This document shows positions 5,214-13,846 of a DNA stretch of 13,846 nucleotides, in pieces. Position numbers and translations under genes: made by a program. Source of the DNA: Cyanobacteria bacterium P01_D01_bin.156 (GTDB lineage: Bacteria; Cyanobacteriota; Cyanobacteriia; Phormidesmidales; Phormidesmidaceae); contig JBCCQQ010000101.1 in the NCBI GenBank assembly GCA_039024555.1, forward strand, positions 1 through 13,846. Direction: 5' to 3'. A model generated the notes under the pieces. The model searched no databases. It was not told where the DNA came from and was given only the letters and a program-made list of their open reading frames with translations. How positions within the stretch are numbered: position 1 is the first letter of the stretch; each line of letters opens with the position of its first letter.

Positions 5214-5789
5214 TCAGTCCCCAGAATCGGTATTTAAAATTTCTACCGTTTTCAGATTGAAACCTCGTACCTTTGGCGATTCGATGATTTCATTTCCTCT
5301 GAATTCGACGACTTCATAAAAACCGTTCACTAATATCAGTACGCTGATGCATTCTTGTATCGGATCGATAATCCAATATTCTTCAATACCCCTAGCGGCA
5401 TATTCAGAGCGTTTGTACCGATAATCGCGCTCTTACTTTTCTTTTCCAGGGGAAACGACTTCTATGATCAGCTGGGGCGGTGGCATATCCAGGGTAATGG
5501 TGCCTCGCTGATCTCCTAGCGCATATCTAGCTCTTCGGTGAGGACCATTAAGTTAGGAATGCGGGCTGTAGCTAAACGTCCGCTAACCTGAATTTCAGTG
5601 TCTTTGCAGCACAATAGTTGAAATGGAAAAACCTTGAGTAGCTGACTGAGTAAAAATAAAGCTATATGGGAATTTAACCTGGATTCAGGTGGTATCTTTT
5701 CAACTTCACCATTGACTAATTCCCAGCGGTCTTCTGTGGCTTCTGAGTAAGCTAAATATTCTTCAAAAGTTAGCTTTTGCAACCGTCAT
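5214..5789 (-). pseudogene. Uma2 family (PD-(D/E)XK) endonuclease pseudogene
   Basis: ATG 5789 to TGA 5214 spans 576 nt. It reconstructs as MTVAKLTFEEYL..RWELVNG..PPES..TITLDMPPPQLIIEVVSPG..RDYRYKRSEYAARGIEEYWIIDP. Lesions: +1 frameshift near 5775-5780, -1 frameshift near 5524, in-frame TAA at 5435-5433. Confidence 0.9.
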
Positions 5790-5829: not shown

Positions 5830-6408
5830 CTATTGGAGCGTTAGCTGTCGTAAACTGCCCATGATTTGACCAAAGGCGATTCCTCTATGGCTATAGGTTT
5901 CTTTTTGGCTGTCGGTCATTTCAGCAAAGGTTTTACCCTGACTGGGTACATAGAAAATTGGGTCGTAGCCAAAGCCATTGCTGCCTTTGGGCGCGGTCAA
6001 AATTTCCCCAGGGCAAATGCCTTCAGTTTCTAGGGCGATGGTGCCATCGGGTTTGGCCAGGGCTAGGGCACAGACAAATTGAGCCTTTCGATTTTCGGTG
6101 TCGTTGAGTTCTCGCAAAACCCGATTAATGCGGTCTTGGTCATCCTTACCGTAGCGGGCGGAATATAGACCGGGGGCACCGTTGAGGGCATTAATTTGTA
6201 GGCCAGAGTCGTCGGCAATGGCCCACTGGTTAGTTGCTATGGCAACTTCCTTTGCTTTGAGGCGGGCATTTTCAATAAAGGTGGTGCCGGTTTCGTCCAC
6301 ATCAATCTCTTTGGGCTTCAGCTTCAGGTCCCACCCGAGAGGTGTCAGATAAACCTGCATTTCCTTGAGTTTGCCAGGATTACCTGTAGCAACAATAACC
6401 GTCGGCAT
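5830..6408 (-). CDS. rdgB: RdgB/HAM1 family non-canonical purine NTP pyrophosphatase (dITP/XTP)
   Basis: ATGNPGKLKE, ENARLKA, ADDSGL, GAPGLYSAR, GFGYDPIF and SHRG motifs are all intact. Confidence 0.95.
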   Translation of the reverse strand: MPTVIVATGNPGKLKEMQVYLTPLGWDLKLKPKEIDVDETGTTFIENARLKAKEVAIATNQWAIADDSGLQINALNGAPGLYSARYGKDDQDRINRVLRELNDTENRKAQFVCALALAKPDGTIALETEGICPGEILTAPKGSNGFGYDPIFYVPSQGKTFAEMTDSQKETYSHRGIAFGQIMGSLRQLTLQ

Positions 6409-11890: not shown

Positions 11891-11962
11891 GCGGATGTAG
11901 TTCAGTGGTAGAACGTCAGCTTCCCAAGCTGAATGTCGTGGGTTCGAGTCCCATCATCCGCT
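11891..11962 (+). tRNA. tRNA-Gly (anticodon CCC)
   Basis: Acceptor stem GCGGATG/CATCCGC, D-arm GTTC-AGTGGTA-GAAC, anticodon arm TCAGC-TTCCCAA-GCTGA (CCC at 11923-11925), T-arm GTGGG-TTCGAGT-CCCAT. CCA is not encoded. Confidence 0.97.
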
Positions 11963-12207: not shown

Positions 12208-12762
12208 TTACCACCCCATTGATCTCAGATACTTGTCGAGTGAGTAGTTCCTCAGAGGAGTACTAGATTTGATATACAGGGGATGTCTAGGGGAGCCATC
12301 AGCATTTATTAACCAGGTGGTTACTCTCCCTGTCCAATTGTCTAGCTGTTTTGACGCTTGGTAGAGTGCACTTTGAAATATTTGCTTACTATGTATTACT
12401 TTCGGTGCTCTTCCCCATGCCAATGCGACTGTATCTTCTGATGGGTTCAGTTCTCTCAAAACTTTGGCCCATGTATCCCAATTCTGGGGGCCTACAGGTG
12501 ATATGTGGGACAACATAGTAGTTGGGTTAGTTGCACGGAGAGCAAATAAATTAACAACAATAAGTTTTGCAAAGTCATTGTTTTTTGTGAGTCTTCGAAG
12601 ACTTGCTATTGTTGGGTCATCTTTTGTTTCGTCAGCAGTAGATGGATTCAACATACAGACCATTAAAGTCTTTTTGCCTCCGCTAATAATGTCTCTTTTG
12701 AGGAGGTATCGGTAATTTGGTTTAGGCATGCTAGCTATTGAAAAAAAATTGCTCCCATTCAC
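12208..12762 (-). CDS. DUF1643 family protein
   Basis: YRYLLKR, MLNPSTAD...DDPT, VNLFALRATNP, GPQN, LAWG, DGSPRHPLY are the family hallmarks. GTG start at 12762, alternative ATG at 12729. Confidence 0.9.
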   Translation of the reverse strand: MNGSNFFSIASMPKPNYRYLLKRDIISGGKKTLMVCMLNPSTADETKDDPTIASLRRLTKNNDFAKLIVVNLFALRATNPTTMLSHISPVGPQNWDTWAKVLRELNPSEDTVALAWGRAPKVIHSKQIFQSALYQASKQLDNWTGRVTTWLINADGSPRHPLYIKSSTPLRNYSLDKYLRSMGW

Positions 12763-12807: not shown

Positions 12808-13491
12808 TCATAACTTATCAGCAAAGACAACACTAGAAATAGTCTTGATAATAGGATTCACAACAGCAAGAGTGATAGCAATAACTACACCCCAGATTAT
12901 TGCTTGCTTCGTTGAGTAAATATCTATACGCTTTTCTAGATCATTTAAACGCTCAACAACTGATGGTAGTGATGTAGTAGGTTCTAGGCCATTTACTATA
13001 TCAGTTGAAATAGAGGTATAACCCGGTTTTTCACGTGCTGAATCATCATATTGGTCTAAACTTGCAAACCATATGGTAAAAAGTTTCTGTTTATATTCGA
13101 TCTGGTAGTTTAATGGGCCAGCATTATATACAGAAAAAACAAGTTTTCCAGAATAACCTGGATCTACGTGAAAACCAGAAACATTGACTAAACCTTTCGA
13201 CTTAGCACTAAATCTCATGGATATAAAGGCTATGGCATCTTCAGGAACAGTAATAACTTCTTCAGTGATTAGATATGCAAATTGTCCAGGAGGAATTAGA
13301 ATAGCTTCTCGTGCCTGAAGTATTCTTTTTGTTCTCTTGTCTAATGGAGTACTTGGTAAGGCTGAAATATAGACCTCATCGCCTAAACTTAAACCGTAGG
13401 AAGCAGATTCAACTCGCTTGTGGTTATATGGTTTGATTAGTTCTTCTTCAGAAATTCGGGTTCGTAGAGTTTGAGATGACCAAAAGCTCAC
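12808..13491 (-). CDS. dCTP deaminase/dUTPase (trimeric) fold protein with C-terminal coiled coil and TM helix
   Basis: ASYGLSLG, IPPGQFAYLITEE..VPED, GL..SGFHVDPGYSGKL..VYNAG give the Dcd fold. LPSVVERLNDLEKRID is coiled-coil-like, followed by hydrophobic AIIWGVVIAITLAVV. GTG start overlaps the upstream stop. Confidence 0.82.
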   Translation of the reverse strand: MSFWSSQTLRTRISEEELIKPYNHKRVESASYGLSLGDEVYISALPSTPLDKRTKRILQAREAILIPPGQFAYLITEEVITVPEDAIAFISMRFSAKSKGLVNVSGFHVDPGYSGKLVFSVYNAGPLNYQIEYKQKLFTIWFASLDQYDDSAREKPGYTSISTDIVNGLEPTTSLPSVVERLNDLEKRIDIYSTKQAIIWGVVIAITLAVVNPIIKTISSVVFADKL

Positions 13492-13846
13492 AAGATCATC
13501 TCCCGAAAAATATTTTTAAGTGAGTGACTTTGTTCAACCTCTTGGAGTCGTTGGCTAGAAGCTTCAAATATTTCCAAATTACGTTTGTCTGCTTCTGCTA
13601 AGAGGAGAGCCAAGAATGACTCCAAGTTTTTGTGCCAAACTTGTCTGACAGGATAATCTTCTTGATGATCTGTTGCCTCACAAGCTTTAGCTAATTTTGA
13701 TAAAAGATAAATATACTCGTTGATAAAATTTTGCTCTGTTTGTTCTTTTCGTTGCTTTTCGATAGCGTCTAGATGCTGGCTAAAGTCAAGGTTTAACAGA
13801 TTGCCTGCTGAGATAGTCATGATAAATGAGTCAATCAAAGCTTTTC
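13488..13846 (-). CDS. Hypothetical helical protein, probably the C-terminal part of a gene that starts beyond the window
   Basis: The frame stays open to the window edge (..AAA GCT TTG ATT). Its TGA overlaps the next GTG (GTGA at 13491-13488). No family recognised. Confidence 0.65.
   Translation of the reverse strand, partial: KALIDSFIMTISAGNLLNLDFSQHLDAIEKQRKEQTEQNFINEYIYLLSKLAKACEATDHQEDYPVRQVWHKNLESFLALLLAEADKRNLEIFEASSQRLQEVEQSHSLKNIFREMIL

Follow-up and report, generated by a model that had tools for sequence, protein, structure and literature searches.

The stretch of DNA analysed here, 13,846 nucleotides long and referred to below as the window, contains a gene (12808..13491, minus strand) whose 227-residue product matches the DCD profile PF22769 with an E value of 6e-17. 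The question raised by the locus is whether this protein is a dCTP deaminase and, if it is not, what a protein of this fold might do instead. The initial annotation proposed that the deaminase catalytic residues are missing, that the protein is a sensor or an altered enzyme, and that an automatic 'dCTP deaminase' label would probably be wrong. The gene stands between two others of the same orientation, and its GTG start overlaps the stop codon of the upstream gene.

E. coli Dcd depends on Ser111, Arg115 and Glu138 for catalysis. The register between the window protein and E. coli K-12 Dcd was determined by phmmer against the PDB, by hhalign and by MAFFT, and all three alignments place Phe94, Ser98 (flanked by Lys97) and Ser120 at these positions, as had been read by eye. 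The surrounding rebuilt active-site segment, Arg93-Asn123 (13123..13215, minus strand), was delineated from the alignments to Dcd; in it, Dcd Arg110, Ser112, Ala114, His121, Thr123, Arg126 and Asp128 correspond to Arg93, Ser95, Lys97, Asn103, Ser105, His108 and Asp110, respectively, so that the basic residue at Dcd position 110 is kept as Arg93. Phe94 and His108 occupy the positions of phosphate-contacting residues in Dcd, and triphosphate binding may therefore be weaker. The motifs of dUTPases are altered as well: the motif I Asp is replaced by Gly33 (SYGL for SYDL), the motif II Arg-Ser by Arg93-Phe94 and the motif IV Gln by Thr139, the first and last of which had also been read correctly at the outset. 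The Asp equivalent to Asp110 is the catalytic base in dUTPases. Against the dCTP deaminase equivalog model TIGR02274 the protein scores 71.3 bits, below the cut-off of 92.8.

The same residues were followed through two sets of homologues, both selected for similarity to the query and overlapping in one protein (P0103): a close set, consisting of the best 119 non-self of 3959 matches, and a distant set, consisting of the best 150 of 2282 cluster representatives (382 at E<=1e-30). Neither a Glu or Asp at the Dcd-138 column, nor Ser111 together with Arg115, nor the Asp, Ser and Gln of dUTPase motifs I, II and IV as a set occurs in any of the best 119 close or best 150 distant homologues, and the 138 column holds Ala, Ser, Gly, Thr or Cys. 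An Arg at the 115 column is found in 0/119 of the best close and 2/150 of the best distant homologues, and a Ser at the 111 column in 0/119 and 25/150, respectively. Phe94 is specific to the clade, being present in 117/119 best close and 20/150 best distant members, the latter having Ala in 84 and Ser in 25. The catalytic loss extends to the whole family and thus reflects neither chance nor local decay. Five other residues are 96-100% conserved in both sets, namely Lys97 (117/119 best close, 149/150 best distant), Asn103 (118/119, 149/150), Ser105 (119/119, 150/150), His108 (119/119, 148/150) and Asp110 (114/119, 148/150); the appearance of new near-invariant residues in old positions indicates that the site was rebuilt rather than eroded. 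The motif III hairpin, Asp110 plus Tyr, Phe or Trp at position 113, is kept, in agreement with the earlier statement that the DPGYxG nucleotide-binding hairpin is retained. A divergent subgroup of these membrane-helix proteins (loci L121, L127 and L128) carries the motif LRY.[FY]KK.GLMNVSGF[HQ]V and the same partner gene. In one homologue (P0157) the membrane helix is followed by a SnoaL/DUF4440 domain. Scans of 22 proteins revealed no fusion of the Dcd-fold domain with a recognised effector, and a weak search of longer forms (572-2000 residues) likewise returned none. The dN/dS ratio is ~0.26-0.51 for five Nostoc-type pairs of cyanobacterial relatives and ~0.15 when the window gene is compared with two relatives, with dS saturated in the latter comparison; by these ratios, purifying selection is acting on the gene.

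The AlphaFold2 model has a pLDDT of 95.5. Residues 2-168 superpose on E. coli Dcd (PDB accession number 1xs1) with a Z score of 21.0 and an RMSD of 2.8 Å over 165 aligned residues, and the bifunctional Dcd:Dut of M. tuberculosis (2qxx) aligns with a Z score of 21.9, RMSD values for Dcd and Dcd:Dut structures ranging from 2.7 to 2.9 Å. An archaeal Dcd-like dUTPase (8y1w) yields a Z score of 20.8 and an RMSD of 1.5 Å over 147 residues; the Z scores of classical dUTPases do not exceed 12.4. The fold suggests a homotrimer with shared sites. The alignment of residues 2-168 includes the C-terminal lid of Dcd (1xs1 residues 1-190), so that residues 150-168 (12988..13044, minus strand) are the lid equivalent. 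The sequence REKPGYTS (residues 153-160), which the initial annotation had likened to dUTPase motif V, belongs to this lid. The motif V reading was rejected on that alignment and because the pattern is absent from the best 119 close and best 150 distant homologues (0/119, 0/150), while it is present in E. coli Dut and in the Dut of the same genome. A Dcd-lid-like Tyr-x-Gly-x-His/Tyr..Gln pattern is found in 16/150 of the best distant members. The lid equivalent runs into a single continuous helix, residues 175-223 (12823..12969, minus strand), which is amphipathic or coiled-coil in character and then hydrophobic at residues 197-215, a transmembrane segment predicted from the model and from hydropathy (mean 2.42). 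Hydropathy predicts such a hydrophobic C-terminal segment in 117/119 best close homologues, 143/151 best distant rows (query included) and 78/82 loci.

Some properties of the Dcd and dUTPase folds bear on what the altered site could still do. E138A, E138D and H121A mutants of E. coli Dcd are named in PDB titles, and E138A structures exist in complex with dCTP and with dTTP (titles of 1xs4 and 2j4q); loss of Glu138 is thus compatible with nucleotide binding. According to the available text of PMC12524310, the uracil-selecting motif III hairpin acts through main-chain atoms and the residues of motifs I, II and IV hold a Mg ion in dUTPases. The Dcd lid is ordered in some ligand-bound structures and missing in apo structures (189 residues in 2qxx vs 161 in 2qlp).

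The host genome, cyanobacterial by the relatives of its genes, carries a separate housekeeping Dcd that keeps the Ser, Arg and Glu, together with a classical Dut; the window gene was rejected as either housekeeping enzyme since both are present intact elsewhere. With the alignment against the Dcd and Dut families placing no Ser, Arg or Glu equivalents in the active site and the TIGR02274 score below its cut-off, the 'dCTP deaminase' label is very probably wrong. The initial observation is real, and the protein is a predicted component of defence; the choice left open at the outset, sensor or altered enzyme, still stands, with the genomic context favouring a sensor. The conservation of the helix, the conserved partner genes and the mobile setting go beyond the initial annotation.

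The three genes lie in an island with a GC content of 0.37-0.38, vs 0.47 for the genome, bounded by a tRNA-Gly(CCC) gene (11891..11962, plus strand). The end of the window overlaps contig C55 by 141 bases, and one 5765-bp contig, whose sequencing run is possibly the source sample of the window and hence not independent, spans both; the bridged junction gives an island of ~2.4 kb. A pseudogene or assembly artefact was rejected given the intact reading frame and the bridging contig. A promoter scan upstream returned 2 sites vs 1.7 expected. The family was found in 0/21 congeners and in 2/60 relatives overall, one of the two being a weak match with stops. From GTDB, 509 matching stretches from many phyla were retrieved with one exact peptide pattern and confirmed. 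Members occur on 9 plasmids. On the small Acinetobacter plasmid NZ_CP113934.1 (L196:6407-8699), a compact natural version comprising the partner, the Dcd-fold gene with its membrane helix and an unannotated HMUDK-like reading frame adjoins the rep gene. A phage gene was rejected as an explanation, with 0/5 and 2/45 candidate stretches in viral contigs and none in 50,697 phage records (E 1e-8). Integrase-like genes, judged by eye, lie directly beside tRNA-Gly(CCC) in 5/9 congener loci fetched, and no integrase is present at the island of the window itself. This tRNA appears to be an integration hotspot in the genus, with partial tRNA copies in several congeners (window 11891-11962; L107-L111). 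Upstream of the cassette, 161 bases of non-coding DNA (C55 ~41925-42085) are 84% alike to a stretch near the tRNA-Gly integration of a congener (L107:5675-5832) and may have been left behind by the same mobile element. A tRNA or tmRNA gene was detected in 11/50 relatives' loci by a scan that had no control set. Outside the island, a probably truncated Uma2 restriction-endonuclease-like reading frame of 88 residues (5516-5782, minus strand; profile positions 1-80 of 172) stands beside a HAM1/RdgB gene (5830-6408).

The gene upstream encodes a partner of ~188 residues, its 3' part in the window (13488..13846, minus strand) and its 5' part on contig C55 (42267-42615). No Pfam family matches it. 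A model of a relative's copy (L009) is all-alpha with a pLDDT of 93, and dimeric dUTPases account for all of its top 15 structural matches (VIA), with Z scores of 9.6-13.5, the next family being MazG at 6.6. The staphylococcal phage enzymes align with Z scores of 12.4-13.5 over 144-151 residues and 8% identity, and those of Campylobacter and trypanosomatids with 9.6-11.0. A Z score of 13.5 is near the level at which helical bundles call for caution, although all 15 top matches are still dimeric dUTPases. The nearest families in an atlas are dUTPase_2 (0.91) and MazG; hhalign gave no decisive match to MazG. A dimeric dUTPase fold is accordingly predicted for the partner. Acidic ExxE motifs are usual in dimeric dUTPase and MazG proteins. 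The first half of the partner has His/Lys/Tyr-rich invariant motifs and no obvious ExxE pair, the residues invariant in 30/30 relatives being Gln15, Gln18, His21, Asp22, Arg37, His40, His44, Lys47, Tyr48, Asp68, Glu118, Asp121, His122, Glu124 and Arg161. The acidic residues of this set, Asp68, Glu118, Asp121 and Glu124, are candidates for the Mg-binding motifs of the superfamily. The copy of this genome has Gly in place of the invariant Arg37 and may thus be impaired. Metagenomes hold 154 loci of the partner; of the best 80, 76 have room downstream, and in 70 of these the Dcd-fold gene follows directly (67 by a strict rule, 3 by inspection); the other six have a TIR gene (3) or nothing recognised (3). 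In L149, L150 and L182 a ThsB-like TIR gene replaces the Dcd-fold gene behind the partner, and in L150 a UDG-like gene and an unassigned gene precede the partner, with a recombinase-like gene nearby. The operon thus brings together both dUTP-handling folds, unrelated as they are, and this suggests that a uracil-type nucleotide is involved.

The third gene of the cassette (12208..12762, minus strand) encodes a DUF1643 protein of 184 residues (PF07799, E 1e-29). DUF1643 presumably has a UDG-like fold; hhalign comparison with neighbouring UDG proteins gave scores no better than controls, and no sequence match exists in the PDB. Neighbours were counted within 8 kb in the best 80 of the 509 loci, of which 13 are cyanobacterial, related loci not being independent and some being cut by contig ends. 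HMUDK_hel is present in 63/80, a thymidylate synthase (TS)-like gene in 42/80, an ImmA/CapP-like gene in 39/80, MazG with MazG_C in 37/80, the upstream family of the window in 39/80, DUF1643 in 15/80, and TIR and Nmad2 in 9/80 each; CapH/CapP-like genes are among the neighbours. MazG with MazG_C and the upstream family are mutually exclusive (both in 2 loci, only MazG in 35, only the upstream family in 37, neither in 6), and a gene of the all-alpha NTP-pyrophosphatase type is present in 74/80 of these best loci. HMUDK_hel, DUF1643 or UDG is found in 78/80, and DUF1643 tends to stand in for HMUDK_hel (both in 6/80). The arrangement of the window (upstream family, Dcd-fold gene and DUF1643, with neither HMUDK nor MazG_C) recurs in 9/80 of the best loci and in several phyla; five of the nine have the same order and strand, and two also contain TIR and Nmad2. 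No HMUDK_hel was found in the 99% complete host genome, and a control search was likewise without a match. The same genome has a second low-GC cassette (C47:8752-11489, minus strand) with MazG+MazG_C, TS-like and UDG genes and no Dcd-fold gene, a module of the same family as the neighbours at other loci; its UDG has a weak Panacea-like C-terminal domain, and the two islands could cooperate. In PADLOC, the three window proteins have no matching model, and family members gave one weak match only. Among 53 flanking proteins, hand-picked from 99 in 17 loci with no control set, 5 match PADLOC models at E<=1e-25, two of them only partially.

The reading that we favour, at about an even chance, is that the protein, having neither the deaminase nor the dUTPase catalytic set, acts as a Kongming-like receptor which, on sensing a uracil-type deoxynucleotide during phage infection, would set off a response at the membrane. 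The protein would trimerise, as Dcd proteins do, and bind its ligand with the retained hairpin (Asp110, Tyr113) and basic residues 93, 97 and 108. Candidate ligands are dUTP, modified forms of it (hydroxymethyl-dUTP, for example) and the corresponding mono- or diphosphates. In the uninfected cell, the partner with the dimeric dUTPase fold (MazG elsewhere) would keep the ligand low or convert it, and partners of the DUF1643, UDG or HMUDK type would act on uracil-like bases in DNA. A phage that raises or modifies dUTP pools or inhibits dUTPases would cause the ligand to accumulate; the ligand would order the lid (150-168), helix 175-223 would shift the membrane helices, and arrest or death would follow. 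The protein would then be the pyrimidine, membrane-effector counterpart of the dead ITPase KomB of Kongming.

Several observations were counted in favour of such a sensor: the loss of the triad together with the conservation of Lys97, Asn103, Ser105, His108 and Asp110, and the dN/dS ratios; the kept hairpin and the nucleotide-bound structures of E138A; the order of the lid in some ligand-bound structures, with the lid preceding the long helix; the fixed nucleotide-type partners, the dimeric dUTPase matches of the partner model, mobile patchy spread and defence-type neighbours; and the DefensePredictor listing of a member and the precedent of KomB. Against it count the single membrane helix per chain, which in a presumed trimer makes a poor pore, the absence of effector-domain fusions from those scanned, and the invariant polar residues and Asp110, which fit an altered enzyme equally well. 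The lack of a PADLOC match for the window proteins, the flanks that are not clearly defence islands, the existence of DS-4 and of the genome's own MazG/TS-like/UDG cassette, neither with a Dcd-fold gene, and the possibly impaired partner copy also count against it. A broader version is put forward tentatively and at somewhat less than an even chance: dUTP or phage-modified dUTP would be the alarm of a widespread, undescribed form of immune signalling, in which the dimeric-dUTPase-fold or MazG enzyme would set the threshold and lid closure on a dead trimeric Dcd-fold receptor would disrupt the membrane, killing cells attacked by phages whose DNA is based on uracil or hydroxymethyluracil.

The strongest rival is an enzyme retooled rather than dead, a membrane-tethered trimer whose substrate, to be hydrolysed or modified, would be a non-canonical pyrimidine dNTP (hydroxymethyl-dUTP or hydroxymethyl-dCTP, for instance), with Lys97, Asn103, Ser105, His108 and Asp110 as catalytic residues and the helix serving for localisation only, so that modified-DNA phages are starved of precursors. 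The invariant polar residues of the active-site segment and the retained Asp110 agree with this, as does the company of neighbours that are all nucleotide enzymes or have their folds. The structures of lowest RMSD, the archaeal Dcd-like dUTPases (8y1w at 1.5 Å; 9ln0), also have no Glu138, which indicates that the Dcd fold has changed its chemistry before. Those dUTPases, however, keep the motif I Asp, the motif II Ser and the motif IV Gln, a set found in 0/119 of the best close and 0/150 of the best distant members of the family. A partner of pyrophosphatase fold would moreover already fill the sanitising role in 74/80 of the best loci, and the near-universal membrane helix would be unexplained for a soluble substrate. 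Such an enzyme is considered rather unlikely, though it ranks next after the sensor.

A guard or decoy acting through protein contacts is improbable. In it, the two dUTPase-like folds would be bait for dUTPase-binding or dUTPase-inhibiting proteins of phages, or the partner would hold the membrane protein inactive as an antitoxin, and release rather than a nucleotide would set off the membrane effect. The presence of both dUTPase architectures in one translationally coupled pair and the tight one-to-one linkage in metagenomes (70/76, from the best 80 of 154 loci) are consistent with this idea. The best matches of the partner are, moreover, dimeric dUTPases of staphylococcal phages (PDB titles), enzymes known to signal through protein contacts, and Dut-Stl signalling by phage dUTPases is covered in the available part of PMC12524310. 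Nonetheless, the unrelated-looking MazG+MazG_C replaces the partner in 35/80 of the best loci, as would be expected of a common substrate more than of a common interface, and conservation is concentrated in the nucleotide-binding segment. A non-defence accessory or neutral passenger, such as a nucleotide sponge or pool buffer on mobile DNA or a decaying copy, is highly doubtful: the little defence-island signal in the flanks, the missing integrase and the changed Arg37 of the partner suit it, but the reading frame is intact and under purifying selection, the operon is conserved across phyla with CapH/CapP-like, TIR and Nmad2 genes, and a member has been called by DefensePredictor.

Hundreds of genes named 'dCTP deaminase' are probably mis-annotated. 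If the sensor reading is right, modified-DNA phages would be detected through uracil-type nucleotide pools, and signalling by base-modified nucleotides, of which Kongming is the purine case, would extend to pyrimidines and to a new receptor fold; should the alarm version hold, this would be the first pyrimidine-triphosphate danger signal. The three-gene form is the smallest version found in this analysis, which makes it the easiest to test, and it would offer a way into the larger cassettes of the DS-4 type, whose mechanism is still unexplained. No description of a membrane Dcd with a dead site was found in the literature searched, although Iyer 2013 and Burroughs 2015, which reportedly predicted such operons, may contain it.

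Compared with known proteins, the family resembles Dcd and Dcd:Dut (1xs1, 2qxx; TIGR02274, PF22769) in the fold of residues 2-168 including the lid, the DPG-aromatic-x-G hairpin and the basic residue at position 110. It differs from Dcd in the absence of Ser111, Arg115 and Glu138, the replacement of His121 and Arg126 and the added coiled-coil and membrane helix, as well as in being mobile and patchy, coexisting with a true Dcd and scoring below the TIGR02274 cut-off. The best PDB sequence matches are archaeal Dcd-like dUTPases (T. pacificus 8y1w; P45 9ln0 and 9ln3), which align with RMSD values of 1.5-1.9 Å and share the missing Glu138, but keep the motif I Asp, RSS and motif IV Gln and have no membrane helix; loss of Glu138 alone thus leaves a dUTPase. 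The partner likewise resembles the dimeric all-alpha dUTPases and the MazG superfamily in predicted fold (Z 12.4-13.5 over 144-151 residues) and in its dUTPase_2 and MazG atlas neighbours, and differs from dimeric dUTPases in its 8% identity and its His/Lys/Tyr-rich invariant motifs.

Among defence systems, the available portion of the DefensePredictor paper (PMC13092281) contains a predicted system of aGPT-Pplase, MazG, MazG-C and dUTPase with domains not validated (Fig. 6F), lists one member of the present family as a 'putative novel defense gene' with a log-odds of 5.05 (Table S4), and describes the validated DS-4 (NTTI), composed of TS, dNMP kinase, HMUDK_hel, TIR and Nmad2 and having no Dcd-fold gene. 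HMUDK_hel, MazG_C, TS, kinase, TIR and Nmad2 are neighbour families shared with these systems; the five genes of DS-4 are all missing from the window cassette, whereas some relatives' loci carry them. That portion does not speak of lost catalytic residues, nor of a membrane helix or a partner with the dimeric dUTPase fold. Defence enzymes resembling UDG that act against phages with modified thymidine have been described (bioRxiv 10.1101/2025.10.29.685425, the accessible text of which does not mention DUF1643, dUTPase or MazG), and aGPT-Pplases derive from phage thymidine modification, as stated in the accessible text of PMC8989533. The closest parallel is Kongming, whose KomB, by the available account (bioRxiv 10.1101/2024.12.20.629578), has lost pyrophosphatase activity and senses dITP. 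None of the Kongming genes (KomA deaminase, KomB HAM1, KomC SIR2) is in the cassette, and KomB differs in its HAM1/ITPase fold, purine signal, SIR2 NADase effector and experimental proof. From what that account gives, the two nonetheless have in common a house-cleaning nucleotide fold with a catalytic residue lost and the pocket kept, encoded in a mobile three-gene operon.
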